This document shows positions 845 to 61,235 of a DNA stretch of 64,000 nucleotides, piece after piece (position 1 is the stretch's first letter; each line of letters begins with the position of its first letter). The notes under the pieces were generated by a model. The model was not told the origin of the DNA. It saw nothing but the letters and a program-made list of their open reading frames with translations, and ran no database searches. The position numbers and the translations under genes are program-made. The DNA is from Escherichia phage Sa157lw: sequence record OK322699.1; one strand, 5' to 3'.

Positions 845-2035
845 ATGGCCGATTTCCTGAGTCAATATACAGGTCAGCAGATAGATCAGATATTGGGTTC
901 TGTTGACGACAAAGTAAGTAAAAACGACGTCATTGATGATTTTGAAGTCAGTGACCCATTGTTTCCGCCTTCTGCTCGCCTGACTTATGAGTTGAAAAGG
1001 TCTGTGGATACGATTAATGATACCCTGACCAACAAAGTTATAAGAACGGATAGTGGCGAACAGACAATCAACGGTAAGAAGACATTTAATGCGCTGTTGG
1101 TTACTAACGGGGGAATCCAAGTCCCCACTGGGAAATCTGTTTCAATCGCGGACGAACCAACCAACTCAACAGACGGTGTCAACCTGAGTATGTTGAGGAA
1201 ACATGGTGTCAGTGAAGACACCGCGCCAGATGGGTCTGGTTTGGCTGGGGAATTATTGACTTCCGGATATTACAAATTCAAACTGGATTTTAACAGATTG
1301 GCTGCGTATACGGAATTAACTCTCCCAACATCAGTTCCCGTGCAAACAGATTCTGGAGTTCGCACATGGTCAATGACTGCATTTTTTAATGCGTTATTTG
1401 CCGACAACCGTTTTAACGGTTATGTAACGACGACCACGTATGATGCCGACATGTTGAGTCTGGAGTCTCAGCTTAACAATATCAACACGACGTTGAACGG
1501 CAAAGTCAACACGTCAACTTACAACACAAAAATGGCTTCGTTGGATTTGAGTATATCCAACATTAACACATCTTTGAGCAACAAGGTTGAGGTCAGCACA
1601 TATAATACGAAGATGACTTCCTTGGACGGCAGTATCAGTTCTCTTACGACTGGTAAGGTCGATGTATCAACGTATAATGCCAAAATGGCCACAATTGATA
1701 ACAGTTTGGGGAACGCTGTTTATCGCACCAAAACAAACTTGTCATCACTGACGGTATCGGCTTCTGGAACAACAGCTCTGCCAGACTTTGATTTGGTGAA
1801 ACTTTGCCAGATATTGGTAACAGCACAATGGGGTACAGGAGATGTCGTAGACACATATCGAGTCACCATAACTCGAGATGGGACGATTAAGTCTGAGCTG
1901 CTGATCCAGAAAAGTACGAGCGGAACTGTGACGTTTACGGGTTCTGTAGTTGGTGGGAAACTGAGGATTTCTGTTGTCAATGCCAATACGACAACACCTT
2001 GCTCAGTCGATTATTCTATTACAGCATCTTTCTAA
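845..2035 (+). CDS. tail fiber-like protein with tandem repeats
   Basis: ATG at 845 with AAGGAG SD. Ser/Thr/Asn-rich with four ~25-aa repeats (VNTSTYNTKMASLDLSISNINTSLSNK and variants); position directly upstream of tailspikes. Confidence 0.55.
   Translation: MADFLSQYTGQQIDQILGSVDDKVSKNDVIDDFEVSDPLFPPSARLTYELKRSVDTINDTLTNKVIRTDSGEQTINGKKTFNALLVTNGGIQVPTGKSVSIADEPTNSTDGVNLSMLRKHGVSEDTAPDGSGLAGELLTSGYYKFKLDFNRLAAYTELTLPTSVPVQTDSGVRTWSMTAFFNALFADNRFNGYVTTTTYDADMLSLESQLNNINTTLNGKVNTSTYNTKMASLDLSISNINTSLSNKVEVSTYNTKMTSLDGSISSLTTGKVDVSTYNAKMATIDNSLGNAVYRTKTNLSSLTVSASGTTALPDFDLVKLCQILVTAQWGTGDVVDTYRVTITRDGTIKSELLIQKSTSGTVTFTGSVVGGKLRISVVNANTTTPCSVDYSITASF
1427..1745 (+). repeat. in-frame tandem repeats (about 4 x 24-27 codons) inside the fiber gene
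   Basis: Repeated protein motif xSTYNxKMxSLDxSIS visible in translation; boundaries approximate. Confidence 0.5.
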
Positions 2036-2037
2036 AA

Positions 2038-2077
2038 CTAAATACCCCTAGATGACATGAATACATTTAGGGGTATT
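2038..2077 (+). promoter_or_regulatory. late-promoter motif CTAAATACCCC (2038-2048) within a 10-bp perfect inverted repeat (2041-2050 / 2068-2077)
   Basis: AATACCCCTA and TAGGGGTATT are exact reverse complements; motif recurs upstream of other structural genes; ATG at 2082. Confidence 0.6.
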
Positions 2078-2081
2078 ACAA

Positions 2082-5000
2082 ATGGCCAACAAACCAACAC
2101 AGCCTCTTTTCCCTTTGGGTTTAGAAACTTCGGAGTCTTCGAACATAAAAGGCTTCAACAACTCCGGCACCATAGAGCATTCCCCTGGTGCAATATTGAC
2201 GTTCCCTGAAGATACTGATGTTGCGGGTCTCCCATCTTCTGTGCGTTACAATCCTGATAGTGATGAATTCGAAGGTTATTACGAAAATGGCGGGTGGTTG
2301 TCTTTGGGTGGTGGCGGAATACGCTGGGAAACGCTCCCATACGCTCCCTCCAGCAATCTGTTAGAAGGGCGCGGCTATCTCATTAATAACTCCACTGGGA
2401 CTTCTACGGTGGTTCTTCCTTCCCCTACGCGCGTTGGTGACTCGGTTACAATTTGTGATGCCTATGGTAAATTCGCGACGTATCCATTGACCGTATCTCC
2501 AGCGGGAAATAACCTGTACGGCTCCACCGAAGATATGACGATATCCACCGATAACGTGTCGGCGACTTTCACTTGGTCTGGTGCTGAGCAGGGTTGGGTT
2601 GTTACATCTGGTGTTGGCCTCGGTCAAGGTCGTGTGTACAGTCGAGAGATTTTCACTCAAATTTTAGCATCTGATACAAATGAAGTGACTCTCAACATCC
2701 CTCCGACAATTGTGGACGTGTACACTGATGGGAAACGCCTTACAGAATCCAAATATTCTTTAAATGGAAACGTAATCACTTTCGACCCTTCTTTACCTGC
2801 TGGCACTGAATTGCAGGTAATAGAATATACTCCGATTCAGTTAGGTACTGGCGGCGGGGGTTCGGGCGCTTCTGCAATCACCTGGATTTACAATGGCGGA
2901 TCCGCTATCGGCGGCGAAACCGAAATAACGCTAGACATCGTTGTAGATGATGTTCCGGCTATTGATATAAACGGGTCTCGTCAGTACAAAAATCTTGGAT
3001 TCACGTTCGACCCATTGACGAGTAAAATCACTCTGACGCAAGAACTGGAACCAGAAGATGAAGTTGTTGTGGTTATAAATGGGACACCAAACATTTATAA
3101 CCAGATCGATCGTTCTTTACAGGAAGTTGCTCGCGCCTACAATTTTACAAATGCTCAAGTTATTTTGAGCAACGATTATACTTCTGCACTGGATAATAAA
3201 GTCGTTATTTATGATACGACATCCCAACGTTCTTGGGGGATTCCATCTGGAATTCCAGCAGGTTCTACAGTGGTTTCCGTCAATGGGGATCAACTGAAAT
3301 ACAAAAATGGATCAACTGAAACCACTGTTACATTGGTGAGCGTACCAGGTAGTGCAGAGAAGTTGAAGAACGATCTGGCGTCGAACTCTGGCGCGGGCAT
3401 GTTGAAAACTTCTAGAGGTGATACCGTAGAAGAAGAATTGACTTTTATTAATCAGAATATGGTCGTTCAAATTTCAGATTTCGCGAGCCTTAGAACTTTA
3501 GTGCCAGCCACAGCGGGCATCCGAGTCAAATTGAAAGGTTATTATTCTGGTTCTGAAATCGGTGGCGGAGAATTCATTTCCGTCGCTGGTGATGCTGTTG
3601 ATGATGCTGGGATGATTGCTCGAGTGTCAAGCAGCTTTTATTGGAAGAGAATTATCGACAAACATATTACTCCTGGTATGTATGGCATCAAAGGGAATCT
3701 TCCAGAAGATCCGGCAGTGAAACTGAACGCTATGTTTACGGCTGCGGCTGCGGCTAACGCTTATGTCTTACTGAACGATGTTGATACTCTGGTCTGTAAA
3801 AGCCCTGTCGTGATCCCAGCACATTCATTAGTGTACGGCAACAAACGGACCATATTGAAACGTGATGCATCGTTGTCATATGCTAATGATTTCTTGACAA
3901 TTATGAATGATTCATATGTCAAGGGGATCTATGTTGATGGTAGCCGTTTAGATTCTCAGACTCCTCTAGAAGCAGTTTTGGTGCGCATCGCTGGGAATGT
4001 GACTATCCATAAGAGCGAGATCCGAAACAATGCTGGCTATGGCGTTGTTGGTAACGCAGTCCCTGGCATTCGTATCACCAAGAACATTTTTTCCAACTTC
4101 GCCAAAGGTTGTGTGGCTATGTTTGGCGACGGAACGGCGACGAGTGATGATCTGCAAATTAATGATAACAGATTCTTTAACCTGGGCGCGGGAACCATTT
4201 ATGTTGGCGGTTACTCAAACTTCCTTGTCGACAAAAACGTCGGAAGAGGCACTTACGTGGGTTCTCCAGGAAACCGTCTGTATGTTGTGACCAATACCAA
4301 CGGGACTATCACCCAAAGCGCTGGGCCAGATTTTGGGGCGCTGAAAACGGGTATGTTCTTTGTATTGCCTGGTGGTTCTGAACATATGATAACTGCTGTC
4401 AACAGCCTTACAAGTGTGACAGTAACCCCACCACCGCCGTCGAACGCCACAGTTCGTGCAATCGCAGGGACAGGGGATCTTCTGGGCATCCAATCATGCT
4501 CCTACGGCACCATCAGCCGTAACAACCTGACCGATTGTGTGACTTACGGAACTGGTGGAGGCACGATGGAGGGGAGCACTCTGGGTTGCAATTATGTCAC
4601 TTGGGAAGACAACTTCATCCGCAACACAGGTAAGAACGGAATCAACGTCGGGCAATCAGGTGCTGGGGTCGCCACGTGTTCTATCCTGAGGAACACTCTG
4701 ATACAGGTTGGTAACGGCGGTCAGGGTGTTGGCCCAGCGTATCTTCTGCCTTGGTTCGATACGGTAGGTATCGCTCTGTATCAGGGAAACCCAGGTTATA
4801 TGGCGAATATGGACGTCAGTGATAACAACGTCTCTACATGGTCTGGCGATCTGAATGACGGCGCTGCTTGGTTTGGTATGAGCGGTTGTACGGAAGCCAC
4901 TGTGACTTGTACAGGCAACAAATCTTCTGGTTATTCCGACGGCTATGTTCGTGGAGATATATTAGAAGTCACGTTGACAGGTTATGGTACAGGGGCGGCT

Positions 5001-5255
5001 GCGACTTCATTCGTTAGTGATGGTGAGTCTATACAGATAACCGTTCAAACAGGTACTTCACCAACAGCTTCTCCTTATTTTTCAGTGCGGAAGGCGATCC
5101 GCACCCGCCATCAACCGATGATAACGGCGCAGATCGTCACCACAACTGGGAACATGTCTCATTGTTGGGGTATGCAATCTAGTACAGCAGGAAACTGGAT
5201 GGTGGGTCAGAATACAACTCCTTCAGGGGTCACGACGTATTACGCAAAAGGGTAA
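2082..5255 (+). CDS. tailspike protein (1057 aa), T4 gp10-like N-terminal domains plus parallel beta-helix
   Basis: Shares an internal module with the 926-aa tailspike (DRSLQEVARAYNF...VVIYDTTSQ vs DRSIQEIARSANV...VVYDSAAQ); C-terminal NxGxG beta-helix-type repeats. Confidence 0.7.
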   Translation: MANKPTQPLFPLGLETSESSNIKGFNNSGTIEHSPGAILTFPEDTDVAGLPSSVRYNPDSDEFEGYYENGGWLSLGGGGIRWETLPYAPSSNLLEGRGYLINNSTGTSTVVLPSPTRVGDSVTICDAYGKFATYPLTVSPAGNNLYGSTEDMTISTDNVSATFTWSGAEQGWVVTSGVGLGQGRVYSREIFTQILASDTNEVTLNIPPTIVDVYTDGKRLTESKYSLNGNVITFDPSLPAGTELQVIEYTPIQLGTGGGGSGASAITWIYNGGSAIGGETEITLDIVVDDVPAIDINGSRQYKNLGFTFDPLTSKITLTQELEPEDEVVVVINGTPNIYNQIDRSLQEVARAYNFTNAQVILSNDYTSALDNKVVIYDTTSQRSWGIPSGIPAGSTVVSVNGDQLKYKNGSTETTVTLVSVPGSAEKLKNDLASNSGAGMLKTSRGDTVEEELTFINQNMVVQISDFASLRTLVPATAGIRVKLKGYYSGSEIGGGEFISVAGDAVDDAGMIARVSSSFYWKRIIDKHITPGMYGIKGNLPEDPAVKLNAMFTAAAAANAYVLLNDVDTLVCKSPVVIPAHSLVYGNKRTILKRDASLSYANDFLTIMNDSYVKGIYVDGSRLDSQTPLEAVLVRIAGNVTIHKSEIRNNAGYGVVGNAVPGIRITKNIFSNFAKGCVAMFGDGTATSDDLQINDNRFFNLGAGTIYVGGYSNFLVDKNVGRGTYVGSPGNRLYVVTNTNGTITQSAGPDFGALKTGMFFVLPGGSEHMITAVNSLTSVTVTPPPPSNATVRAIAGTGDLLGIQSCSYGTISRNNLTDCVTYGTGGGTMEGSTLGCNYVTWEDNFIRNTGKNGINVGQSGAGVATCSILRNTLIQVGNGGQGVGPAYLLPWFDTVGIALYQGNPGYMANMDVSDNNVSTWSGDLNDGAAWFGMSGCTEATVTCTGNKSSGYSDGYVRGDILEVTLTGYGTGAAATSFVSDGESIQITVQTGTSPTASPYFSVRKAIRTRHQPMITAQIVTTTGNMSHCWGMQSSTAGNWMVGQNTTPSGVTTYYAKG

Positions 5256-5265
5256 TATTGAATGC

Positions 5266-5302
5266 CTAAATACCCCATATTGGACATCCTTTATGGGGTA
5301 TT
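5266..5302 (+). promoter_or_regulatory. late-promoter motif CTAAATACCCC (5266-5276) within an 11-bp inverted repeat (5269-5279 / 5292-5302)
   Basis: AATACCCCATA / TATGGGGTATT exact reverse complements; right arm contains the GGGG SD of the ATG at 5306. Confidence 0.6.
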
Positions 5303-5305
5303 ATC

Positions 5306-7402
5306 ATGATTTCTCAATTCAATCAGCCACACGGCTCCACTTCAATATTTGTTAACAAACAATCTATCGCTCGAAATTTCGGTGTCAAAGAAGACGAAGT
5401 CGTTTATTTCACTGCTGGTATTGATCTCAGTGGATTTAAAGTAATTTATGATGAGTCTACCCAACGGGCTTATTCTCTTCCTTCGGGTATTGTTTCAGGA
5501 ACGACTGCGATAAGTCTGAACGAACAAGCCATCCTCACTCATTCCGCTGGCTCTGTTGACCTTGGGGAATTAGCAGTAAGCCGCGAAGAATATGTGACTT
5601 TACCTGGTTCTTTTAATTTCGGCCATACCATTAATGTGAAAAATGAACTTCTTGTTCACGATGATAAAAAATATCGATGGGATGGTTCACTTCCTAAAAC
5701 TGTCGATGCTGGCTCAACACCTGAAACATCTGGTGGCGTTGGTATTGGTACATGGCTGAGTGTTGGTGACGCAGCATTTAGACAGGAAGCCAACAAAAAA
5801 TTCAAATATTCAGTAAAGTTATCTGATTATTCTACATTACAGGATGCAGCGACAGCAGCCGTAGATGGATTGCTTATTGATGTTGACTACACTTTTACTG
5901 CAGATGAGAGTGTAGATTTTAGCGGTAAAGTTTTAATCATTGAATGCAAGGGAAAATTCATTGGCGATGGTATGTTGGTTTGGAATGGTTTGGGTGCGGG
6001 TTCAGTAATTAAGAAACCGCACATGCATACTAAAACTACGCCGTATACTGTTTACCGATTCGATGCAAACGGTAATTGGGTTACAGACCCAACACAAGTT
6101 CTGGCATCTGTTCAGCAGCGTTTGGATGTTGGATATAAGCCAAATATTAACGATTTAGATATTTGGGACGACCTTCCTGATAATGTAAAAAATCAGGTTG
6201 CTGGTGCTACTTTGCGAATAATGAGCGGCGATAATATCATCGTAGAGAACCCAGAAGCTACATTTGGTGGTTATCTATTTACTTTATGTAATAGGATTCT
6301 TGTTAAGAATCCACGCAATTTTATTGCTTTGGAATCGGGCATTACATTTGAGAACCATCATACAACTGCATGGGGTACTGGCAACTGGGTTGTTGGGGGT
6401 GAGATTAAATATGGCTCTGGTTCCGCTGTACTGTTCATTCGCAATGATGGTGGTACAGACCATGATGGTGGAGTAAGGGATTTAATATCCTATCGCGTTG
6501 GAGAATCTGGTGTTAAAACCTATCAAAATGAAATAGGTGGTCGTTCAGCCAGGAACTACCGTTTAGTGTTCGACAATATAACTACAATCCAGTGTTACTA
6601 TGATGGTATTGATGTTAATGCTGACACAGGGTCGCCAACTGAACGTGTGGATGACTACTCACTCGCAGAGTATCCATGGTTCCACCTACCTACTCAACAT
6701 ATCATCCGTAATATTATTACTCGTGATTGTATGGGGATTGGTGCTTGGTGGGATGGTCAGAAAAATATTATTGATAATGTTGTTACTTATGAGGCCCATA
6801 AGGAAGGCGTCTTCGATAGGGGTACTAACAATGATATTACTAACATTACTGTAGTAGGTGCGAATAAGGATTTAACTAACCTAAATCAGATTACCTGTGA
6901 GGGAGGTAGTAGACTTCGTGGTATTAACATCCATGCATATACTACACAAGGTTACGCTATATACGCTCCGTCTTCAGAAGTAAGTAATGTTTCCTGTGCT
7001 GGTTCCGGTACTAAGAAATTACTATGTACCTATATAAGCGATATTCAGGGAGGTAATATCAATGTTCAGCATAGTGCCAACCAAATGACACTTGCAATGC
7101 AACCTGCTATGGGTGGTACTACAAACCCATCTTTGCTTATGACGGCAGATTGCCAGGTTGCTACACCAGGGGGTGAGGCAAGTATTGTCAAGCTTTCGGC
7201 AATTCAGGAGGGTGTACGTGTAGGTGAGTTTCAGCTTAACCGCTTAGGCTTTAAGCATATGAGTATACCTGCTGCCCCTTTACAATTACCAGAGAGCGCT
7301 CTGGAACATAATTCATCTATAGGATTCTTCTTCGGAAGTGACGGAGCATTGAGGTTGCTTGCTAAAAAACCAGATGGAAGTTATGTAACATACACACTTT
7401 AA
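5306..7402 (+). CDS. tailspike protein (698 aa) with N-terminal anchor domain shared with the 596-aa tailspike
   Basis: First ~140 aa align with the 10338 gene (GSTS...IARNFGVKEDEVVYFTAG...QRAYSLPS vs GSTS...IARKFGCKKSEVVYAKAG...QRAYSLPS); divergent C-terminus. Confidence 0.65.
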   Translation: MISQFNQPHGSTSIFVNKQSIARNFGVKEDEVVYFTAGIDLSGFKVIYDESTQRAYSLPSGIVSGTTAISLNEQAILTHSAGSVDLGELAVSREEYVTLPGSFNFGHTINVKNELLVHDDKKYRWDGSLPKTVDAGSTPETSGGVGIGTWLSVGDAAFRQEANKKFKYSVKLSDYSTLQDAATAAVDGLLIDVDYTFTADESVDFSGKVLIIECKGKFIGDGMLVWNGLGAGSVIKKPHMHTKTTPYTVYRFDANGNWVTDPTQVLASVQQRLDVGYKPNINDLDIWDDLPDNVKNQVAGATLRIMSGDNIIVENPEATFGGYLFTLCNRILVKNPRNFIALESGITFENHHTTAWGTGNWVVGGEIKYGSGSAVLFIRNDGGTDHDGGVRDLISYRVGESGVKTYQNEIGGRSARNYRLVFDNITTIQCYYDGIDVNADTGSPTERVDDYSLAEYPWFHLPTQHIIRNIITRDCMGIGAWWDGQKNIIDNVVTYEAHKEGVFDRGTNNDITNITVVGANKDLTNLNQITCEGGSRLRGINIHAYTTQGYAIYAPSSEVSNVSCAGSGTKKLLCTYISDIQGGNINVQHSANQMTLAMQPAMGGTTNPSLLMTADCQVATPGGEASIVKLSAIQEGVRVGEFQLNRLGFKHMSIPAAPLQLPESALEHNSSIGFFFGSDGALRLLAKKPDGSYVTYTL

Positions 7403-7417
7403 TTTATCTTGAGCAAA

Positions 7418-7445
7418 AACCCCGCTTTGGCGGGGTTCTTATTAT
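7418..7445 (+). terminator. rho-independent terminator (AACCCCGC-TTTG-GCGGGGTT plus T-rich tail)
   Basis: Perfect 8-bp GC-rich stem directly after the stop at 7402. Confidence 0.6.
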
Positions 7446-7475
7446 ACCTTTGTTCATAAATTTTATTAGTTCAGA

Positions 7476-7513
7476 CTAAATACCCCATATTGGCAAATCC
7501 TTATGGGGTATTT
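7476..7513 (+). promoter_or_regulatory. late-promoter motif CTAAATACCCC (7476-7486) within a 12-bp inverted repeat (7478-7489 / 7502-7513)
   Basis: AAATACCCCATA / TATGGGGTATTT exact reverse complements; right arm contains the SD for the ATG at 7518. Confidence 0.6.
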
Positions 7514-7517
7514 TCAA

Positions 7518-10283
7518 ATGACCAGAAATGTAGAAGAATTATTCGGCGGCGTAATCACAGCTCCCCACCAGATTCCTTTCACGTATAAATCAAATGTCGG
7601 TGGAGAAACTTTCATTTCTCTACCTTTCTATCCTGTCGCTGGTGTTGTCACAATTAACGGCGGGGTGCAAGTTCCGTTAGACAACTTCGAAATAGACGGG
7701 AATACGTTAAACCTCGGGCGCGCATTGTCTAAAGATGACGTGGTTTATTGCCTGTTCGACAAAATCCTTTCACCAGAAGATACTTCTAAAGGTATTCGAA
7801 TATACAAATTTCAAGCCGTGGGTGGAGAAACTGAATTCACGCCTGACTTTACTTCTTATGGTGTCCAGTCTCTTTATATCGGTGGTGAGTACAAAACTCC
7901 TGATATAGAATATTCATACAACAGTACGACTGGGAAAGTTTCCTTACAAACTGCGCTGACTGCAGGGGTGTGGGTTGTTGCGGAGATGTCTGTTAAACAA
8001 CCGAATATCAGTCCGGCGTTCGATCGCAGTATCCAAGAAATTGCCCGTTCGGCTAACGTAAAAGACTCTGAAGTCATTGTCAGCACTGATACCATATCTT
8101 TACTCGACGACAAGAAAGTTGTTTATGATTCAGCGGCGCAGATTATTTATGGTTTACCAACTATCCCTGATGGTTCAGTGATTTCTTCTGTTAGTAATGG
8201 GCAACTTACTTATAATCCAGGTAATGTTGTAGTGGATTTGTTGCCTTTAGAAGATTCATTTATTAATGTGATAAACACTCTGGGGCGCAATGATGGTGCC
8301 AAGTATATCGGAGAATGCCATTCTGTTGCTGATCTCAGGAATACTGAACCCACTATGGATGGACAACGCATTATTCTTAAGCAACACACTGCGGGTACTC
8401 TTCTTGGTGGAGGGGTATTCCGTGCGTTAATTGATGGTACAGGAAAGACTGATGATAACGGCACTGTGATCAAAACTGTTGGAGGCGCAGCCTGGTTACG
8501 TGTTAATGCTGATAGAGTTAACCCATTCATGTTTGGTGCTTTGGGCGGTTCTAATGATGATACTATTCCAGTACAATCTTGTGTGGACAGTGGTAAGGCC
8601 ACACAATTAACTGGTGTACATTACGTTAGCAATATCCGGTTAAAATATAATACGTCGTCTATTTATGGGTCTGGATTACATTACTCCAGGTTGCATCAGT
8701 TGCCTTCTGCTACTGGGAATTGTATTACCATAAAAGATACATGCTCCCTTATTGTATTAGACTCCTTTGGGGTATATGGCACAGGTGCACAACAAGGCAC
8801 ATCATTTACTGCGGGTACAACAGGTATCTATATAGAAACTCCTTCAGGTCTCTCAGCTGATTATCCGTTCCACACTACCGCAGACCCAAGACGCGACTTG
8901 TGTATTTCTAAGGTCCATATAGCAGGTTTTGATGAATATGGGTTAAATATTGATAGTGGTAACTTTAGTGTTACTACAGATTCTCTTTTAGTCAACCACA
9001 TCAATCAGGTGGGCGTCCGTTGTGCTACTACTGATTGGACTTGGACAAATATCCAGGTTAATACCTGCGGTAAACAATGTCTGGTTCTTGATGGTTGTGG
9101 TAATGGTCGTATTATTGGTGGTAAATTCATTTGGGCTAACTGGCAACCTTATGGTACAGTAGGACAGTTCCCAGGCATTACTATTAATAATAGCCAGAAT
9201 ATGGTTATTAATGGTATTGAGGTACAAGATTGTGGCGGGAATGGCATTGAGATTAGCGATTCATATTCAATTTCCATGAACGGATTGAACACCAATCGTA
9301 ACGGCATCAACGCTAACAACACTTTCTACAACATCGTATTTAACAAAAGTGATGCAGTTATCAACGGATTCGTAGGACTCAATTATGCCGCGAATAGTGG
9401 TTCAGGTGCTAACTCTAGTGCGGGCAATTTTCAGTTCCTGTCTAATGATTGCAGCGTCACCATTAATGGTGTGGTTGAGACTGGTTATATGGGCATTAAC
9501 TTTATTGGTGATAACAATATTATCAACCCCACAAATTCCGACCTGAGCATTAACGGATTGGTTAATTATTCCAAGACTGGTTTGCAAACCATGAACGAGA
9601 CCCCTACATTTGATGGTGTTAGCACTACACCTGTTTATGTAAGTGTCCCATCTTCTGTAGGGCAAGTAAATGGTCTGAGACTATCACAAGCCAACAAAGA
9701 TAAATTACTGTACTCAAGAACAGCAGGTCCAGAAGGTATTACCATGGCTGCTGTTGTAGTACCTACCATATCTGGAGCTGAAGTATTTAACTTCATGGCC
9801 ATTGGTTCAGGGTTTAGTGATACATCCAACAGTCTTCATCTTCAATTAGTTATAGACGCTTCCGGAAAACAAACAATTGCTTTGCTATTGGGGGGCGATG
9901 GTACAACCCAAATTTTATCTGGGGATTTACCTAACGACCTTAAACTACAAAGTGGTGTGCCATATCATATAGCTATTGGTGCTAAACCTGGATATTTCTG
10001 GTGGAGTATTCTTAATATTCAGACGGGTAAGAGAATCAGACGGTCATTCCGAGGCGCTTATTTAGCTGTACCATTTAATTCTATATTCGGATTAACTTCT
10101 TCATTAACATTCTTCTCGGATAGCAATGCTGGTGGGGATGCCTGTTCTGGTGTAGGTGCTAAAGTGTATGTTGGTATGTTCTCTTCTGAGAATGATTATG
10201 TAGCTTCACGGTACTACAACCTGATTAATCCTGTAGACCCTAATAAGTTAATTAGTTACCGTATATTGGATTCTTCTATTTAA
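7518..10283 (+). CDS. tailspike protein (921 aa from ATG 7518), gp10-like domains plus parallel beta-helix
   Basis: ORF-track start 7503 lies inside the palindrome; ATG 7518 preferred. Beta-helix repeats (VINGIEVQDCGGNGIEISDS...). Shares module with the 1057-aa tailspike. Confidence 0.7.
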   Translation: MTRNVEELFGGVITAPHQIPFTYKSNVGGETFISLPFYPVAGVVTINGGVQVPLDNFEIDGNTLNLGRALSKDDVVYCLFDKILSPEDTSKGIRIYKFQAVGGETEFTPDFTSYGVQSLYIGGEYKTPDIEYSYNSTTGKVSLQTALTAGVWVVAEMSVKQPNISPAFDRSIQEIARSANVKDSEVIVSTDTISLLDDKKVVYDSAAQIIYGLPTIPDGSVISSVSNGQLTYNPGNVVVDLLPLEDSFINVINTLGRNDGAKYIGECHSVADLRNTEPTMDGQRIILKQHTAGTLLGGGVFRALIDGTGKTDDNGTVIKTVGGAAWLRVNADRVNPFMFGALGGSNDDTIPVQSCVDSGKATQLTGVHYVSNIRLKYNTSSIYGSGLHYSRLHQLPSATGNCITIKDTCSLIVLDSFGVYGTGAQQGTSFTAGTTGIYIETPSGLSADYPFHTTADPRRDLCISKVHIAGFDEYGLNIDSGNFSVTTDSLLVNHINQVGVRCATTDWTWTNIQVNTCGKQCLVLDGCGNGRIIGGKFIWANWQPYGTVGQFPGITINNSQNMVINGIEVQDCGGNGIEISDSYSISMNGLNTNRNGINANNTFYNIVFNKSDAVINGFVGLNYAANSGSGANSSAGNFQFLSNDCSVTINGVVETGYMGINFIGDNNIINPTNSDLSINGLVNYSKTGLQTMNETPTFDGVSTTPVYVSVPSSVGQVNGLRLSQANKDKLLYSRTAGPEGITMAAVVVPTISGAEVFNFMAIGSGFSDTSNSLHLQLVIDASGKQTIALLLGGDGTTQILSGDLPNDLKLQSGVPYHIAIGAKPGYFWWSILNIQTGKRIRRSFRGAYLAVPFNSIFGLTSSLTFFSDSNAGGDACSGVGAKVYVGMFSSENDYVASRYYNLINPVDPNKLISYRILDSSI

Positions 10284-10337
10284 AAATATACCCCTCTTCG
10301 GAGGGTATTTACTAGAGAAAAACAGGAGATTCTTATT

Positions 10338-12183: not shown

Positions 12184-12203
12184 CTAAATATCTCTATAAA
12201 TGG
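12184..12203 (+). promoter_or_regulatory. variant late-promoter-like element (CTAAATATCTC followed by TATAAATGG)
   Basis: Resembles both CTAAATA and T4 TATAAATA boxes; 20-40 nt upstream of ATG 12223. Confidence 0.35.
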
Positions 12204-12222
12204 CACTCGATGGAGCATCAAA

Positions 12223-18698: not shown

Positions 18699-18709
18699 CT
18701 AAATACCTT
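18699..18709 (+). promoter_or_regulatory. late-promoter motif variant CTAAATACCTT
   Basis: 20 nt upstream of gp14 ATG; matches CTAAATAcC core. Confidence 0.45.
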
Positions 18710-18728
18710 CAAAATTGAGGGTAAAGTC

Positions 18729-22948: not shown

Positions 22949-22959
22949 CTAAATATCTT
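22949..22959 (+). promoter_or_regulatory. late-promoter motif variant CTAAATATCTT
   Basis: About 40 nt upstream of gp18 ATG. Confidence 0.4.
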
Positions 22960-27729: not shown

Positions 27730-27740
27730 CTAAATATAGA
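27730..27740 (+). promoter_or_regulatory. late-promoter motif variant CTAAATATAGA
   Basis: About 25 nt upstream of the small ORF at 27764. Confidence 0.35.
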
Positions 27741-27763: not shown

Positions 27764-27934
27764 ATGAGCGCAATTGATATCGTTCGTGCAGTAATTGACG
27801 GTGACACTGAAACTGCTGTTGCAGAATGCAACATGGAACTTGATGCACGTAGTCAAGAACTATTGAACCAAGGCACAGCATATGTTCTGGATTCTATCGC
27901 AGCCGATATGAATTCAAACAACAACGGCCAGTAA
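27764..27934 (+). CDS. gp67: prohead core protein gp67-like (56 aa)
   Basis: Short ORF not in the ORF track (<60 aa); position between gp20 and gp68 as in T4; GGAG SD. Confidence 0.45.
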   Translation: MSAIDIVRAVIDGDTETAVAECNMELDARSQELLNQGTAYVLDSIAADMNSNNNGQ

Positions 27935-28947: not shown

Positions 28948-28958
28948 CTAAATACTGA
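28948..28958 (+). promoter_or_regulatory. late-promoter motif variant CTAAATACTGA
   Basis: 25 nt upstream of gp22 ATG. Confidence 0.4.
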
Positions 28959-29822: not shown

Positions 29823-29913
29823 TTTTAGCAGCCACAGCCCTCGAAAGGGGGCTTGATTTTGAACTACTAAGTAATTTCAACTTAACTGAATATCAATGTA
29901 AGGAACGAGCATC

Positions 29914-31330: not shown

Positions 31331-31567
31331 ATGAACGATCATTACCTAACTTTCACAACTGGAACGCTACTCATGGCTAAAGAAACTCTGACTAAAGAAA
31401 ACTCTAACTTCGCAGAATGGCATGCAGAATTAGAGCGTGTCGCTCGTTCTCAACATGGCTCTGCCGCCGATGCTATGGCGTGGCATGAAGATTATGAGTC
31501 TGGCAAAACCCCGCGTCAGGCTTGGGAAGATGAATGGGGGTGGAATGATGCAGACTCTAATTCGTAA
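31331..31567 (+). CDS. hypothetical protein
   Basis: ORF with ATG; weak SD; no homology recognised. Confidence 0.35.
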   Translation: MNDHYLTFTTGTLLMAKETLTKENSNFAEWHAELERVARSQHGSAADAMAWHEDYESGKTPRQAWEDEWGWNDADSNS

Positions 31568-31778
31568 GATATATCTGGATAAGAACTATTTGGAATCCAA
31601 AATCGAAGTTTTCTCGGCTCAAAAAATAATTGAAGACGGTGAAACGAGATATTATCTGAAACCTGACCTTTATCTTCCAGGAAGTAGTTTGAATCGCGAT
31701 ATAATTCAGTCGGACGGTATTACTGTTCGTTGGGAAATGGCGTCACAGGAAGACAACTGTCATAGCATAACACTTTGA
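31545..31778 (+). CDS. hypothetical protein
   Basis: Internal ATG of ORF-track frame 31437-31778 with G-rich SD; overlaps previous gene end. Confidence 0.35.
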   Translation: MMQTLIRKIYLDKNYLESKIEVFSAQKIIEDGETRYYLKPDLYLPGSSLNRDIIQSDGITVRWEMASQEDNCHSITL

Positions 31779-31793
31779 AGAGAGATCTATATT

Positions 31794-32234
31794 ATGTCAA
31801 AAGAAAAATACATATTCATCAGCCCCGCTACGAAGGAGTTCTTCATCTCCGACGTGAAAGATCGTGTTGAGAAGTTCCGCTACATGCGCAGCTATGGTCT
31901 GGCATCCGGTGATATTGATTATCAGTCACTGGACAATGATCGCCAAGATCTGATCGACGACGGTTGGCGTTTAGTTCCGTCCCCTCAGTACATTCATATC
32001 ACGTTGTACTATATGAAGGACAGCGGGAAGTTCTATTCCGAAGGTGAACTCGTACTCAATCGAGGAGAAGCAGAAGCCGAACCTGCCAAAACCTGGATGT
32101 TGGCGATGGATCAGATCCGTGAATTGCTGGACTCCGGTAATCTGCCTGGCCTGATCAGGGGTTCAAAATTCGACGTGTTCGTTACTGGCCAGGGTCATCC
32201 TGGTGGATACCCACATCTGTTCCGTATTAACTGA
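31794..32234 (+). CDS. hypothetical protein
   Basis: ORF preceded by GAGAGATCTATATT element; no homology recognised. Confidence 0.5.
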   Translation: MSKEKYIFISPATKEFFISDVKDRVEKFRYMRSYGLASGDIDYQSLDNDRQDLIDDGWRLVPSPQYIHITLYYMKDSGKFYSEGELVLNRGEAEAEPAKTWMLAMDQIRELLDSGNLPGLIRGSKFDVFVTGQGHPGGYPHLFRIN

Positions 32235-32242
32235 GGTCAATT

Positions 32243-32617
32243 ATGAGCAATTTACCACTGCTTCAAGTCGGTGACGTATTCATTCTCACGGCAGAAATGA
32301 CCGTTGAAACTCAGGTGCCAAAGCATTTCTTGTATTCTAATTGCAAGGGTGATTGGCAAATGGACTCTGGTTATATCACCCCTGAGGGATTCTTCGGTTA
32401 CATGCAAGGACATTACGTCGTTACCAAAACAGCCCTACAAGGCGGTAGCACTGGTCATGATCCATACCCTGACGGCCATCATGTTTGGGCACAGCATACT
32501 GAAAATGAACGCATCAGAATCTGTTTCTATCAGACAGGTAGTTTCAGGAATATGCACCGGAATGTTCCAGTAGTCGGAAAGGCTAAGGCGCAAACATGGA
32601 CTTGGGAGAAATTATGA
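32243..32617 (+). CDS. hypothetical protein
   Basis: ORF with GAGG SD. Confidence 0.5.
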   Translation: MSNLPLLQVGDVFILTAEMTVETQVPKHFLYSNCKGDWQMDSGYITPEGFFGYMQGHYVVTKTALQGGSTGHDPYPDGHHVWAQHTENERIRICFYQTGSFRNMHRNVPVVGKAKAQTWTWEKL

Positions 32618-32850
32618 AAATCAAAAAGATAGGCGCAAGCCCATTGACGGGAACAATCTTCCAGGGTACTTTGAACACCAAGACCAGTATGTGGGTCGGT
32701 GAGAAGACTGATGTGACTAACGACTGTGTAGCGGCTACGGCTGAACACATGCGTCACATCAAGAAAGACTACTGCTTCCCTACTAAAGACGGCAAGTTCC
32801 TGGTGCTGAGCGCTGAGGTTCACGACACCCTTCCTGATCGCTTCAAATAA
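32614..32850 (+). CDS. hypothetical protein
   Basis: ATG 32614 with GGAGAA SD overlapping previous stop (ATGA). Confidence 0.4.
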   Translation: MKIKKIGASPLTGTIFQGTLNTKTSMWVGEKTDVTNDCVAATAEHMRHIKKDYCFPTKDGKFLVLSAEVHDTLPDRFK

Positions 32851-32953
32851 ATTTAAAATTTATTCAATAAACGGGGTTTACTTCTTCAATAAACCCCGTA
32901 TACTTCATTCCATAAGCAGCACAACACTGACTCTGAAATGAAGGAACTACACC

Positions 32954-33391
32954 ATGACCACAGCAAAAGTTACCATCTACGCTTTCGACGCTTTCTCTAA
33001 ATTTGACGCATTCGTCTCCTCCGCATTTGGTATCAAAGAAGTTGAAGCAGAGAAAACTTTCTGTGGTGGACTCGGCAAGTTTGCCAACCTGAGTTTATCC
33101 CTGACAGAGTTCATGAAATCTCTTGAAGGTCACTTTGACGCCGAAACCATTCGCACTTCCTTACTCAAGAAAGACGGCACCCCTCGCAAACTGTCTGGCA
33201 AGACTAGAATTTACGATGCTGACGGCTTTACTGTGTCTGTGCATTTTACTGAAGAACCTGTGTACGAACTTTTCAGCGGGTCTGAGGACCTCACTCACTA
33301 TGTGGTCAGGAAAGGCGATTCCCGCCCTGTGTTCGAATCTGGCGACATCCTCGCCGCTATCAAAGAACTTGCGCGTCTGAATAGCCTCTAA
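32954..33391 (+). CDS. hypothetical protein
   Basis: ORF with GAAGGAA SD. Confidence 0.5.
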   Translation: MTTAKVTIYAFDAFSKFDAFVSSAFGIKEVEAEKTFCGGLGKFANLSLSLTEFMKSLEGHFDAETIRTSLLKKDGTPRKLSGKTRIYDADGFTVSVHFTEEPVYELFSGSEDLTHYVVRKGDSRPVFESGDILAAIKELARLNSL

Positions 33392-33466
33392 CAGACGTTT
33401 GTTCTAAACCTTTGAACGGGGTATGGTTAATCCATACCCTATCCCATACAAATAGAGGACTTTATC

Positions 33467-33816: not shown

Positions 33817-34239
33817 ATGAAGAAGTATATCGTTCTTATAACGGGTTCCCGTTCTATAACTGAGCGGGACAAAATATTTGCCAAATTAGATGAACTCTTA
33901 ATCCCTCACGAGATAGAGACGTTTATTGAAGGTGAAGCAGTGGGTGTGGATCTGATATCCCGTGATTGGTGTGAAATCAATTATGTGCATATCACACCAA
34001 TGCCGATTCCTCAAAATTACCATACGTTATATGGGAAAGGTGCGGGCAATCAACGTAACAAAGATATGCTGGACAAGGCTCTAACATTGGCGAAGCAAAA
34101 AGATCTTGAGGTCTTTGGAATTGCATTATGGGATGGTTCGTCTACTGGGACGCAAGACATGATCAAGCGCATGAAGAAAGCGGGAATAAATGTCAATATC
34201 ACTCTCATGGGCAAACCCAAAACCAAACGATTGTTATAA
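33817..34239 (+). CDS. SLOG/DUF2493-like Rossmann-fold protein
   Basis: VLITGSRS ... EGEAVGVD ... QRNKDML ... WDGSSTGTQDMI pattern resembles the DprA/LOG-like DUF2493 family (from memory). Confidence 0.45.
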   Translation: MKKYIVLITGSRSITERDKIFAKLDELLIPHEIETFIEGEAVGVDLISRDWCEINYVHITPMPIPQNYHTLYGKGAGNQRNKDMLDKALTLAKQKDLEVFGIALWDGSSTGTQDMIKRMKKAGINVNITLMGKPKTKRLL

Positions 34240-34269
34240 ATAAATTTGCCACCCATGAGGAGTTATACC

Positions 34270-34440
34270 ATGTTACAAATACTGTTGGTGCTTTGTGTCG
34301 CATTTACCATGTACTTCATGGCACGCATCGGTTTTATTACTTTAGATGACATGAAGGGTATCCCACGTGAACCCAAATTCATCTTTCTGAAGAAGTTTGC
34401 CAAAAAGTTCTCAGAAAACTTTATTTATCATCTACCATGA
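34270..34440 (+). CDS. small membrane protein
   Basis: ATG 34270 after GAGGAG SD; one hydrophobic helix (LQILLVLCVAFTMYFMARIGFI). Confidence 0.35.
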   Translation: MLQILLVLCVAFTMYFMARIGFITLDDMKGIPREPKFIFLKKFAKKFSENFIYHLP

Positions 34441-34468
34441 TTAAATACCCCCAAAATTGGGGGTATTT
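34441..34468 (+). promoter_or_regulatory. late-promoter motif TTAAATACCCCC within an 11-bp perfect palindrome (34443-34453 / 34458-34468, 4-nt loop)
   Basis: AAATACCCCCA / TGGGGGTATTT exact reverse complements; right arm contains the GGGGG SD of the ATG at 34471. Confidence 0.6.
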
Positions 34469-36876: not shown

Positions 36877-37622
36877 TGGTTTCCCTGCAGGCTTTGCGTA
36901 AACTCAATGATTTTGAGAACCGCCATTACACATTTCAGCAGTATGCCTTGCCCTTTAAGGAACTGACTTGTGTAACAACGGAAAACGGACGCCATTATGT
37001 GTCTCCAACAGGCGTCAAACTCACATCTGTAACAACGATGTTGGGGCGTACCGGAGATCATACATGGTTAGAAGCCTGGCGGGACAAGTTAGGACACGAA
37101 GCCGCCGATATCGAAACAGAGCGTTGCGCAGACCGTGGGGAAAAACTTCATTTGGCCTGTGAATTATATCTCAAAAACAGGCCGATGAAGGAAGTGTTAG
37201 AAGCCGCAGGGGAATACGTGTTTATGTTTAAACAGGTCTTCCCCTACCTGAACAAAATGAGCAAGATATACGCGCAGGAGATTCCGTTATATAGCGAAGT
37301 CCTTGGTCTTGCTGGTCGTGTTGATCTCATCAGCGTTTACGAGGGAATCCCTAGCATTATCGATTTCAAAACATCCAACACCCTGAAAACTCGGAGCATG
37401 ATAGAAGATTACAGCATTCAACTATGCCTGTACTCAGTCATGTTTCAACAGATGTTTAATGTTAAGATCGAACGTTTGGTCAATATTATATCTAACGAAA
37501 ATTCTCTTGTCCCGACTATAATCGAATTTAATCGAAAAGACGTTATTTCTAAAATGTTTGATCGTGTTCGCCTGTATCATAAAATGGATAAAGAACAGAA
37601 CGGGATCTGGGCGGATCGCTAA
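36876..37622 (+). CDS. PD-(D/E)xK family nuclease-like protein
   Basis: ATG overlapping previous stop (TGATG); motif GRVDLI ... IIDFKTS fits D...(D/E)xK. Confidence 0.4.
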   Translation: MVSLQALRKLNDFENRHYTFQQYALPFKELTCVTTENGRHYVSPTGVKLTSVTTMLGRTGDHTWLEAWRDKLGHEAADIETERCADRGEKLHLACELYLKNRPMKEVLEAAGEYVFMFKQVFPYLNKMSKIYAQEIPLYSEVLGLAGRVDLISVYEGIPSIIDFKTSNTLKTRSMIEDYSIQLCLYSVMFQQMFNVKIERLVNIISNENSLVPTIIEFNRKDVISKMFDRVRLYHKMDKEQNGIWADR

Positions 37623-37650
37623 ATACTCCATAATATTGGGGGAATTAGTG

Positions 37651-39156
37651 ATGTCAGAAATTCAAATAATCAAAGTTAACGAAGTGCGCATGCGAATCTT
37701 GGCGGAAGACTATATCCGCGAAGAACTCAATGATTACTTCAAATTTGAAGATCCTAATTTCCAACCGAATCCCTTCAGTAAATGGGATGGCGTGGTACGC
37801 TTGTTCACAAAGAGTTCTGGCCTTATAGACATCGGTCTGTTGTTTGAGGTGTTTAAGTTCTGTAAGATGAATGGTTACACCATCAAATTAGATCCCGCCT
37901 TAAAATATATCCAAGATATACCAGACGAAGAGATACATACATTTATCAATTCCCTGAACGCTGTTTACCGTGATGAAAACAAGCAATACCAAATCGCAAC
38001 AGTGCGCGACTATCAATTCGACTCAGTGGCCACAGCAATACGCCAATCCAGATGCGTGCTAGAAGCGGCTACGAGCGCGGGTAAATCGTTTATTTTGTAC
38101 ATCATGGCGCGTTACTACAGGCAACGCAGAGAGGCACTGGAAAGCAATCTCAAGACGTTGATCGTTGTACCTTCCATTCACTTGGTGACTCAGTTGTATG
38201 ACAACTTTGAGGAATACAGCCATGGCACAAATTGGAATACCATGATGAATGTCCAGATGATATGTGAAGGTGCAACAAAGGATATATTCAAGCCCATAGT
38301 CATTTCCACTTGGCAGGGTATTCAGAATCAGCCCAAAGAATGGTTCCATCAATTTGGGGATATTGTTGTCGACGAAGTACACACATCTAAATCTGAAAAG
38401 CTATCTTATATCCTGAACAACTGCATTAATGCTGACCAAAGATTGGGAGTAACCGGAACCCTCGCGAATACAAAGGTTGCAGGGTTGCAGGTCGTTGCCC
38501 ATTTTGGAGCATACCATAAAATTATTACAGCACGTGATTTAATAAATCTTGGTTATGCCGCAGATATCCATGTCAACATGATTGAAGTCATACATCCCAT
38601 GGCGGATTGTATAGAAATGCATGGTGCTGAGTACCAAAAGGAAATAGAATTCCTCATAGCGAATGAACGTCGAAACGAGTTAATAGCCAGAATGGCATTG
38701 TCTTTGAAAGGTAACGTGGCCGTTATGTTCGAACGCATTGACGCCCATATGATGATTGTTTATGAAATGCTTTCAGCCGTTAAGAAAAACGTATTTGTCA
38801 TTAACGGCGAAGTTAAGACAGAAGTTCGTAAACAAATTCAGGCAGCGATGGAAGAGGGCGAAGATATAACACTGCTGGCATCTTATGGGACCATGCAACA
38901 GGGAGTGTCGATCAAAAAACTTCATCATTTGATATTGGCACACCCGAGTAAATCCTATATTCGTGTCATACAGACTTTAGGGCGTCTCATGCGCCAGCAC
39001 TCTTCAAAGGATGTTGCCAAGATCTGGGATTTAGTAGACAACTTGCGTTACAAAGGATTTTCGTACAACCATGCCCTCAGACATTCGCATGAGAGATATA
39101 AATTTTATCTTATGGAGCGACACCCTGTACAAATGAAGAAAGTGTCGCTCCAGTAA
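37651..39156 (+). CDS. uvsW: UvsW helicase
   Basis: ATG 37651 with GGGGGA SD; ATSAGKS Walker A, VDEVH box, N-terminal region parallels T4 UvsW. Confidence 0.8.
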   Translation: MSEIQIIKVNEVRMRILAEDYIREELNDYFKFEDPNFQPNPFSKWDGVVRLFTKSSGLIDIGLLFEVFKFCKMNGYTIKLDPALKYIQDIPDEEIHTFINSLNAVYRDENKQYQIATVRDYQFDSVATAIRQSRCVLEAATSAGKSFILYIMARYYRQRREALESNLKTLIVVPSIHLVTQLYDNFEEYSHGTNWNTMMNVQMICEGATKDIFKPIVISTWQGIQNQPKEWFHQFGDIVVDEVHTSKSEKLSYILNNCINADQRLGVTGTLANTKVAGLQVVAHFGAYHKIITARDLINLGYAADIHVNMIEVIHPMADCIEMHGAEYQKEIEFLIANERRNELIARMALSLKGNVAVMFERIDAHMMIVYEMLSAVKKNVFVINGEVKTEVRKQIQAAMEEGEDITLLASYGTMQQGVSIKKLHHLILAHPSKSYIRVIQTLGRLMRQHSSKDVAKIWDLVDNLRYKGFSYNHALRHSHERYKFYLMERHPVQMKKVSLQ

Positions 39157-39157
39157 T

Positions 39158-39535
39158 TCATTTATCTTGATTCACATAGGCGGGGGTTGCCTCGCCGTCT
39201 TTGTTAGAACCGAACAAACAACCCATCGTGTTGATGCATTGTTGTAGAACTTCCGGCTCAAGAATCTGACTCATCAGTTCTTCATTAGATTCCATCAGCG
39301 GGATGACTTTCACTTCCCGCGCCTGTCCTTGTTGGATAATGCCGATATACAGACCTTTGGTGTCTGGCAGTAACGGGATCACCATCATTGGTGTCACAAC
39401 AAACTTAGAAGTGCGATAGAGGCTGTGTAAGTAAACACCTTTCAATGTCGGTTGTTCTTCTACCAACATTGAAGACATTGAAAGGTTGGATTCTTGAACT
39501 TCCCCCACTGCATATAAACCCACGAATTGTTTCAT
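39158..39535 (-). CDS. hypothetical protein (125 aa), opposite strand
   Basis: Only long ORF in this gap; convergent with uvsW; plausible SD. Confidence 0.45.
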   Translation of the reverse strand: MKQFVGLYAVGEVQESNLSMSSMLVEEQPTLKGVYLHSLYRTSKFVVTPMMVIPLLPDTKGLYIGIIQQGQAREVKVIPLMESNEELMSQILEPEVLQQCINTMGCLFGSNKDGEATPAYVNQDK

Positions 39536-42066: not shown

Positions 42067-42531
42067 ATGGCGCGTAATACGCTGGACATCTTGAAACTTT
42101 CAGCTGTTAACGATGAGGCCAGCATCGTTGATTGTATGGTTGAAGTTCAATTGAACCAAGATAAACCAGGAATTTTTCTGGGTATCAAGGAAACGCTGAG
42201 CCGCATCGGGGTGAACACTCGTCAAGAGCCGAATACCCTGTACCAAACATGTCATATTCTGCATAAATTTGGCAGATATCACATCGTGCACTTCAAGCAT
42301 CTTTTCATGCTGGATGGGCATTACAACGGCTTTACGCGTGAAGATGTCCTGCGTATGAATCGGATTATTCGGCTTTTGGAGCAGTGGAATATGGTTAAAA
42401 TACTGCATCCGGAACAGATTACCGAAGTTGCTGATATGTCTCGAATCAAAGTTGTAAAACATGACCAAGTTTCTGATTGGAAACTGGTTCCAAAATATAC
42501 CATCCGCCCGACTCGGGCGAAAAGCGAATAA
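42067..42531 (+). CDS. regA: translational repressor RegA
   Basis: LYQTCHILHKFGRYHIVHFKHLFML and DWKLVPKYTIR match T4 RegA. Alignment suggests the true start may be the internal ATG at 42136 (MVEVQLNQDKPGIFLGIKETL vs T4 MIEITLKKPEDFLKVKETL). Confidence 0.8.
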   Translation: MARNTLDILKLSAVNDEASIVDCMVEVQLNQDKPGIFLGIKETLSRIGVNTRQEPNTLYQTCHILHKFGRYHIVHFKHLFMLDGHYNGFTREDVLRMNRIIRLLEQWNMVKILHPEQITEVADMSRIKVVKHDQVSDWKLVPKYTIRPTRAKSE

Positions 42532-60696: not shown

Positions 60697-61224
60697 ATGA
60701 TTGAAATATACACTGACGGGGCATCTTCCCCGCAGAAGACACAAGCCGCAGGTTGGGCATTTGCTATCGGTCCAATCACTGGAGAGCAATGGAAAGTGTT
60801 TTATGGGTATTTACCCCCACCGTCAACGAATAATATCGCTGAGTTGCTTGGGGTTATAAACGCCTTGAAGATTCTATGGAAATTCTCTAATTGTGGGGAA
60901 CGCTGTATTCCCTCAGCCAGTATTATATCCGACAGCCAATATGTTATCAATAGTGTTTTGGAGTGGCGTAGAAAATGGGAATATGAAGGAATGCCGCCTA
61001 AGAACACAGAACTTCTGCTCGAGTTGTTCGATTATTATGACAAAGTTTGTTCAATTTGTGAACTTGAATTAAAATGGGTGAAAGGTCATGCGGGGAATAT
61101 CGGCAACGAAATCGCAGATCAGTGGAGCGTCAGAGCCAAAGAAAATAGCTCGATGGTTCTTGAAAATAATCGTTTCCTGGTCAGAAAGGTTGTTGGTTCT
61201 TTCAATGAATTCATTGGTATTTGA
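60697..61224 (+). CDS. ribonuclease H (RnhA-type)
   Basis: IEIYTDGAS...NNIAELLGVINALK...IISDSQYVINSVLEWRRKWEY...WVKGHAGNIGNEIADQ matches bacterial RNase HI active-site segments. Confidence 0.8.
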   Translation: MIEIYTDGASSPQKTQAAGWAFAIGPITGEQWKVFYGYLPPPSTNNIAELLGVINALKILWKFSNCGERCIPSASIISDSQYVINSVLEWRRKWEYEGMPPKNTELLLELFDYYDKVCSICELELKWVKGHAGNIGNEIADQWSVRAKENSSMVLENNRFLVRKVVGSFNEFIGI

Positions 61225-61235
61225 GGATTATCACG

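Follow-up and report, generated by a model that had tools for sequence, protein, structure and literature searches.

In a 64,000-nt stretch of Escherichia phage Sa157lw DNA (record OK322699.1; hereafter the window), the late-promoter boxes of three tailspike genes and of a DUF7217 structural gene are each built into a perfect inverted repeat, the right arm of which holds the Shine-Dalgarno (SD) sequence of the gene. These elements are probably composite expression signals of the type described for T4 gene e and I-TevI, gating the translation of late genes. In the model that we propose, the C-rich bases 3’ of the (A)CTAAATA box would act as an anti-SD strand, and a transcript started further upstream would carry both arms and fold into a 10-14 bp hairpin. 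This hairpin would bury the GGGGU ribosome-binding site, and the gene would therefore be poorly translated on read-through RNA. Polymerase carrying the late sigma factor would initiate at the 3’ end of the left arm, ~6 nt beyond TAAATA, so that the gene’s own late transcript would lack this arm and leave the ribosome-binding site open. Translation would be coupled to the firing of the gene’s own late promoter.

The window belongs to a Kuttervirus (Ackermannviridae, ViI/CBA120 group), and its positions 1500-9500 are 99.3% identical to Salmonella phage AR2819 (MW021753). Bases 1 to ~38,000 hold a structural module encoded on one strand, with baseplate wedge and tail fibre genes, four tailspike genes and a gene for a VriC-like giant protein, as well as neck, terminase, sheath, tube, portal and head genes. 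At ~31400-33400, a homing endonuclease gene of AR2819 and its small ORFs gp75-77 and gp79 could not be mapped onto the window, and the fourth tailspike gene differs in length between the two phages (596 against 744 aa); both differences suggest local mosaicism with respect to AR2819, the closest relative.

A motif scan of the window found exact copies of CTAAATACCCC at 2038, 5266 and 7476, and copies with one mismatch at 34441 (TTAAATACCCC) and 37619 (CTAAATACTCC). These five copies with at most one mismatch compare with 0.57 expected, and none of 100 shuffles gave five. The original prediction had placed the motif, or a near variant, at 2038, 5266, 7476 and 34441, in agreement with the scan; the weaker variants that it listed at 12184, 18699, 22949, 27730 and 28948 each consist of a C followed by TAAATA, 29-48 nt upstream of a gene start. 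The copy at 37619, absent from that list, is likewise C+TAAATA upstream of a gene start, and in all, (A)CTAAATA is present at 10-11 sites in the window. The motif had also been equated with the late promoter consensus of the ViI/CBA120 group. It indeed agrees with the published CTAAATAcCcc, a “unique regulatory motif” of Viunalikevirus/Ackermannviridae found at ~5 positions per genome (PMC7283392), both in its sequence and in its location 5’ of late or structural genes. CTAAATAcCcc has been employed as a late promoter driving reporter expression (PMC9965104). The accounts of it in the searchable papers describe a single promoter motif, with no mention of an inverted repeat or an SD.

Compared with the T4 late consensus, TATAAATA, the window motif deviates mainly at -12, and the box orthologous to that at 34441 is exactly TATAAATA in several other Kuttervirus genomes. 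The window carries a gene for a gp55-type late sigma factor (61221-62006, plus strand; match to phrog_234, “late sigma transcription factor”, E = 1.4e-53; gp122 in the AR2819 annotation), which would read the CTAAATA promoters. The promoter proper seems to be (A)CTAAATA, with the “cCcc” tail marking the subset of sites that pair downstream with a GGGG SD. Since T4 late promoters are A/T-rich immediately 3’ of the box (PMC2988020), the CCCC tail is better explained by pairing with GGGG, and each TAAATACCCC in the scanned stretches of four genera has GGGGTAT downstream. In T4, the late box spans positions -13 to -6 (PMC2988020). Transferred by position to the diverged sigma factor of this phage, the T4 rule places the putative transcription starts of the four genes at A2050, ~5278, ~7488 and A34453, each within the final 1-2 nt of a perfect left arm. 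Among the papers that could be searched, we found no Ackermannviridae phage with mapped transcription starts, a mapped RNA structure or usable RNA-seq data.

All four elements lie on the plus strand. At the first tailspike gene (site 1; ATG 2082), the box CTAAATA occupies 2038-2044, the equivalent of T4 TATAAATA, and the hairpin spans 2041-2077. Its perfect 10-bp core (2041-2050/2068-2077) reaches 14 bp with one G-T pair (left arm 2041-2054, right arm 2064-2077), and the SD, GGGGU, is at 2070-2074. Site 2 (5266-5302; ATG 5306) combines CTAAATA at 5266-5272 with a perfect 11-bp repeat (5269-5279/5292-5302) that has an inner GG/CC extension, its GGGGU lying at 5295-5299. Site 3 (7476-7513; ATG 7518) has CTAAATA at 7476-7482, a perfect 12-bp repeat (7478-7489/7502-7513) and GGGGU at 7505-7509, and site 4 (34441-34468), upstream of the DUF7217 structural gene (ATG 34471), has TTAAATA at 34441-34447 and GGGGGU at 34459-34464. 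The first three repeats are exactly as originally predicted; the fourth is also real and perfect, but one bp longer than had been given, at 12 bp (34443-34454/34457-34468).

The geometry of the four sites is stereotyped. Their CTAAATA or TTAAATA boxes lie 29-43 nt upstream of the ATG, left arms begin at base 2-4 of TAAATA, and right arms end 2-5 nt 5’ of the ATG. As had been proposed, the right arm contains the G-rich SD of the downstream ATG: it holds the sole SD-like run (GGGGU), ~6-8 nt before the ATG, and no alternative SD is present 3’ of the hairpin at any of the four sites. Such repeats greatly exceed chance: the window holds 11 that are perfect over at least 10 bp with a 2-20 nt spacer, as compared with 0.87 in order-1 shuffles (maximum 3). 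Four of the 11 begin at base 2-3 of a TAAATA box, and certain others resemble terminators. No Rfam family was matched anywhere in the window. The right arm was also considered as a second, minus-strand late promoter and rejected, its reverse complements being GAAAATA, AAAAATA, GTAATA and GATAATA rather than TAAATA.

Some further observations concern start codons and repeats in the window. In a mechanical ORF list, the longest form of the third tailspike ORF begins with ATG 7503, which is in frame but falls within the right hairpin arm; the start is likely ATG 7518, which has GGGGU 8 nt upstream and is the start annotated in AR2819. A perfect 12-bp inverted repeat (TGGTTATAAATG/CATTTATAACCA) at 3070-3103, within the coding region of the first tailspike gene, includes a late-promoter-like TATAAAT string, and a perfect 13-bp repeat with a 24-nt spacer (ACCTTTCAATGTC/GACATTGAAAGGT; 39437-39486) overlaps the 5’ end of a minus-strand gene (39158-39535).

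The predicted folding of the four leaders depends on whether the promoter is part of the RNA. With the promoter included, the leader of site 1 folded at -19.1 kcal/mol (z = -6.2), as compared with -2.4 kcal/mol (z = -0.6) from the predicted +1. The corresponding values were -19.5 (z = -5.0) and -3.9 kcal/mol (z = +0.2) for site 2, -17.0 (z = -4.5) and -3.8 kcal/mol for site 3, and -16.6 (z = -3.5) and 0 kcal/mol for site 4. RNAs cut to the predicted +1 folded no differently from shuffled sequences at the four sites (z ~0) and had their SD freed, the mean unpaired probability over positions -14 to -5 of longer constructs being 0.33-0.45 without the left arm and 0.00-0.12 with it. Among 44 gene starts in the window, the late-promoter genes had the least accessible SDs (p = 0.002, Mann-Whitney), the three tailspike genes taking ranks 1-3 for inaccessibility and the VriC-like gene the fourth. 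These folding predictions are consistent with the original proposal that a hairpin buries the SD in read-through RNA, a strong SD-occluding fold being predicted only for RNA that includes the promoter.

An intermediate copy of the element is found at the neck (gp14-like) gene (18699-18723, plus strand; ATG 18729), where CTAAATA is followed by the hairpin UACCUUCAA/UUGAGGGUA (arms 18704-18712/18715-18723; 9 bp including a conserved U-G wobble; -13.6 kcal/mol, z = -5.6) and the SD is GAGGG. Weak versions of 5-6 bp occur at the VriC-like, sheath and helicase genes. At the first of these, the box CTAAATA at 12184 is followed by a 6-bp CUCUAU/AUGGAG pairing (12184-12215, plus strand; arms 12192-12197/12210-12215) that covers the SD, GGAG, of the 1612-aa VriC-like gene (ATG 12223), leaving it with an unpaired probability of 0.06-0.07. 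At the UvsW-like helicase gene, the variant CTAAATACTCC is combined with weak CUCCA/UGGGG pairing (37619-37653, plus strand; ATG 37651). This gene is annotated in AR2819 from a TTG equivalent to 37558; judging from the 37619 box, from the SD and from orthologues in three further genera, the start is probably ATG 37651.

The CTAAATA promoter of the tail sheath gene (22949-22955, plus strand), which has no strong SD hairpin, served as a comparison site, and similar plus-strand sites are 27730-27736, 28948-28954 and a TATAAATA at 34235-34242. Folding gave no SD hairpin at the promoters of the scaffold gene and of the small ORF at 27764 or at the TATAAATA of 34235. A hairpin at all late promoters was therefore rejected as a description of this genome, the sheath, scaffold, 27764 small-ORF and 34235 promoters being without a strong one. 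Upstream of the major capsid gene (ATG 29914) there is no exact TAAATA, only ACTAAGTA at ~29867-29873, possibly a variant form of the late promoter, and an SD hairpin is probably lacking there as well; Serratia phage phiMAM1 carries CTAAATA at the equivalent position.

The arrangement had been predicted to apply across the tailspike genes. This holds for three of the four (ATGs 2082, 5306 and 7518), but not for the fourth (10338), which has no TAAATA box and has a free SD, AGGAGA, at ~10324; site 4 belongs to the DUF7217 gene. Upstream of the fourth tailspike gene, at 10288-10308, lies a hairpin with arms like the others (AUACCCCUC UUCG GAGGGUAU), one bulged C and a terminator-like tail; it may represent the cassette in a degenerate or alternative form.

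We assembled the whole genome of AR2819 and listed 25 candidate late promoters. Across these, the longest helix pairing the promoter-proximal segment with the SD region of its own gene averaged 7.5 bp, as compared with 5.1 bp for swapped partners (permutation p = 5e-5), and nine sites had at least 8 effective bp of pairing. Outside the region covered by the window, the same design precedes the endolysin gene (PG_binding_1 + PF11860 muramidase; AAAUACCUCUGCA/UGCGGAGGUAUUU) and the gene for a RuvC-like Holliday-junction resolvase (AAAUACCCAUAAC/GUUAUGGGUAUUU, 13 bp), and further copies precede genes for an ART-PolyVal-like protein and two small proteins, with weaker ones at the tail lysozyme and a baseplate wedge gene. 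The annotated ATG of the resolvase gene falls within the right hairpin arm (37186-37210 in locus L070; 115060-115084 in AR2819). The next in-frame ATG, 12 nt on and right after GGGUAUUUUU, agrees with the geometry of the cassette and is present in all the genera.

The design of promoter, hairpin and SD is kept in all four other genera that we compared, namely Taipeivirus (Klebsiella phage Zahir), Limestonevirus (Dickeya phage JA15), Miltonvirus (Serratia phage phiMAM1) and Agtrevirus-like contigs, with diverged loops and upstream flanks. The inner stem at the first tailspike gene reads CCCCUA(GAUG)/(CAUU)UAGGGG in Kuttervirus, CCCCUAG/CUAGGGG in Taipeivirus and CCCCUAAUG/CAUUAGGGG in Miltonvirus, and the DUF7217 leader closes its stem on the inside with AU, UA or CG, phiMAM1 having a U-G wobble. 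In the resolvase leader, both partners of a pair have changed twice independently (AUAAC/GUUAU to AUAUC/GAUAU; CCCAUAAC/GUUAUGGG to CCCGUAAC/GUUACGGG), and a G:C insertion is compensated; the MAFFT alignment of this leader misplaced the G:C insertion, and two rows scored as unpaired pair on direct reading. The endolysin leader combines a variable left arm (CUCUG or CUUCG) with a fixed SD-bearing right arm; U-G wobbles preserve the pairing, and 98.7% of the alignment cells are paired. U-G wobbles that form on the sense strand only are found in the endolysin, neck, gp30 and phiMAM1 DUF7217 leaders, which argues for an RNA structure of the coding strand rather than a DNA palindrome.

Together with the comparison of own and swapped SD partners, these patterns indicate that pairing has been maintained in evolution. 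The leader alignments are small, with 6-9 distinct sequences each, because protein-anchored searches of IMG/VR returned few loci (~14-23 each, mostly Kuttervirus). Covariation is slight at the four window sites, since the tailspike stems in particular are almost invariant, and the compensatory changes come mostly from paralogous and out-of-window leaders. More distant matches (FelixO1-like phages; loci L066-68 and L091-93) had no such leader.

Could hairpins in such short intergenic spaces instead be 3’-end elements of the upstream gene, weak terminators or stabilisers that overlap the downstream signals for want of room? Site 4 does loosely resemble a terminator, with an A-tract, a G/C stem and a U-rich tail (UUGGGGGUAUUUUUAUG), site 3 does so in part (UAUUUUC), and the related promoterless hairpin at 10288-10308 was flagged as terminator-like. 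Nevertheless, the four sites all went unflagged in a terminator consensus scan (which was limited to loops of 3-8 nt, exceeded at three of them), UAUUACA and UAUUAUC follow sites 1 and 2 in place of the U-tract of a Rho-independent terminator, and site 4 carries an SD in addition to its U-rich tail. The genuine terminators of this genome (7418-7437 and 12135-12154) are, like the hairpins studied here, G/C-containing intergenic stem-loops, but they are uniform (AACCCCGCUUCGGCGGGGUU followed by Us at 7418 and 12135), with GC-rich 8-bp stems, tetraloops and a U-run, and have neither promoter nor SD, whereas the outer stems of the hairpins are A/U-rich and built from the promoter box and the SD spacer. 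One of these terminators (7418-7437) already lies 5’ of site 3. A role at the 3’ end of the upstream gene, which would leave unexplained that the sole SD is always in the right arm and that the left arm always starts inside TAAATA, is in our view unlikely. We assign a similarly low probability to translational coupling as the main explanation, whereby a ribosome ending the upstream gene would melt the left arm and expose the SD on a polycistronic late mRNA. The upstream genes in the module are all late and on the same strand, and their stop codons lie 5 nt before the arm at site 1 (2033-2035), 2 nt at site 4 (34438-34440) and 13 nt at site 2; at distances of 2-5 nt, coupling could contribute at sites 1 and 4, alongside the gating that we favor. 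It cannot do so at site 3, where the upstream stop is 75 nt away with a terminator in between, or at the neck gene, where a terminator lies upstream and, in AR2819, a minus-strand gene precedes, and it leaves unexplained a promoter in the left arm of every copy.

A role of the repeat as DNA, either as a palindrome for a dimeric regulator or as a cassette border for the swapping of tailspike modules, appears least probable of all and would surprise us. Tailspike genes are known to undergo exchange, and their promoter-hairpin-ATG block is nearly invariant across genera that have unrelated upstream flanks. Against this, some copies pair only through sense-strand U-G wobbles, which are mismatches in DNA and in antisense RNA, loops or spacers range from 2 to 17 nt, and the same design is present at genes that do not encode tailspikes (DUF7217, neck, endolysin, resolvase). 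Because arm sequences differ between sites, they have no single protein site in common beyond the promoter box. Given how little the tailspike cassette varies across genera, the repeat may still contribute secondarily to the exchange of modules.

Translational gating by a late promoter located inside a hairpin is textbook knowledge for T4. The precedent of gene e and I-TevI is as originally stated (PMC3014915), and the T4 cases comprise e (lysozyme), soc, 49 (resolvase) and I-TevI, with Aeh1 mobE covered in the same review (PMC3014915). As in T4, a gp55-type late promoter lies within the DNA coding for the 5’ strand of the hairpin, and the 3’ strand, which in T4 sequesters the SD or AUG, is predicted by folding to do so here. 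Long transcripts are silent in T4 and late transcripts lack the 5’ strand, as we propose for Kuttervirus. The gated genes of AR2819 include those for an endolysin and a Holliday-junction resolvase, as do those of T4 (e and 49), although the endolysin is a PF11860 muramidase rather than a member of the T4 lysozyme family and the resolvase is RuvC-like and, to our knowledge, unrelated to T4 endonuclease VII. The elements described here also differ from those of T4 in belonging to a different phage family, in their box (CTAAATA instead of TATAAATA) and in their number and uniformity, with at least 9-10 copies per genome of a stereotyped AAUAC(C/U)... / ...G(G/A)GGUAUU design. A further difference is that three tailspike genes and other virion genes would be gated within an all-late operon in which no early read-through is evident.

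This last point bears on what the gate would be for. The early-type motif of the family (TTCAAT-N13-15-TATAAT) precedes three copies that lie outside the window, those of the endolysin, gp30 and gp34; none was found on the plus strand of the structural module or just upstream of the resolvase gene. With no early-type promoter in the structural module, masked tailspike transcripts would be late and polycistronic, and since read-through would come from upstream late promoters, the rationale of temporal gating is weaker at the tailspike genes. The early-versus-late logic of T4 suits the endolysin, gp30 and gp34 copies better. At the tailspike genes, where read-through transcripts would have to exist and be silent for the gate to matter, it may set stoichiometry or insulate each cassette; given the good terminator before site 3, there may be little read-through to repress at that site. 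The window also encodes a RegA-like translational repressor (42067-42531), and a RegB-like endoribonuclease is annotated outside it (AR2819 gp128), so that other post-transcriptional controls of the T4 type may act on the same GGAG/GGGG sites.

Hairpins at these promoters go unmentioned in the genome papers of CBA120, AG3, LIMEstone and EspM4VN, and the gate is apparently new to the searchable literature for ViI-like phages, its mechanism being known from T4. If the gate operates as proposed, a distant phage family gates its lysis and resolvase genes in the T4 manner, although the enzymes belong to different protein families. The published consensus would be refined to CTAAATA, the promoter, with an optional anti-SD tail; the cassette also points to the true starts of the helicase, resolvase and third tailspike genes.

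A broader reading, which we offer only tentatively and regard as rather doubtful at present, is that the family uses a genome-wide, stereotyped cassette of promoter, anti-SD and SD at no fewer than 10 genes per genome, making the tailspike genes self-contained modules. These host-range genes would then be translated only from their own promoter, silent on polycistronic late mRNA and portable, and the invariant cassette could double as a recombination border for tailspike swapping. On this reading, the “cCcc” of the published consensus would belong to the RNA and not to the promoter.

ViI, CBA120, Det7, S117 and LIMEstone phages are widely used in biocontrol, diagnostics and tailspike engineering; if the gate operates as proposed, tailspike genes that are replaced or moved, or a “late promoter” that is borrowed for reporters, would bring along an anti-SD element that silences read-through transcripts. 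For the Ackermannviridae, the rule would be that a gene behind the cassette is translated only from its own late promoter.
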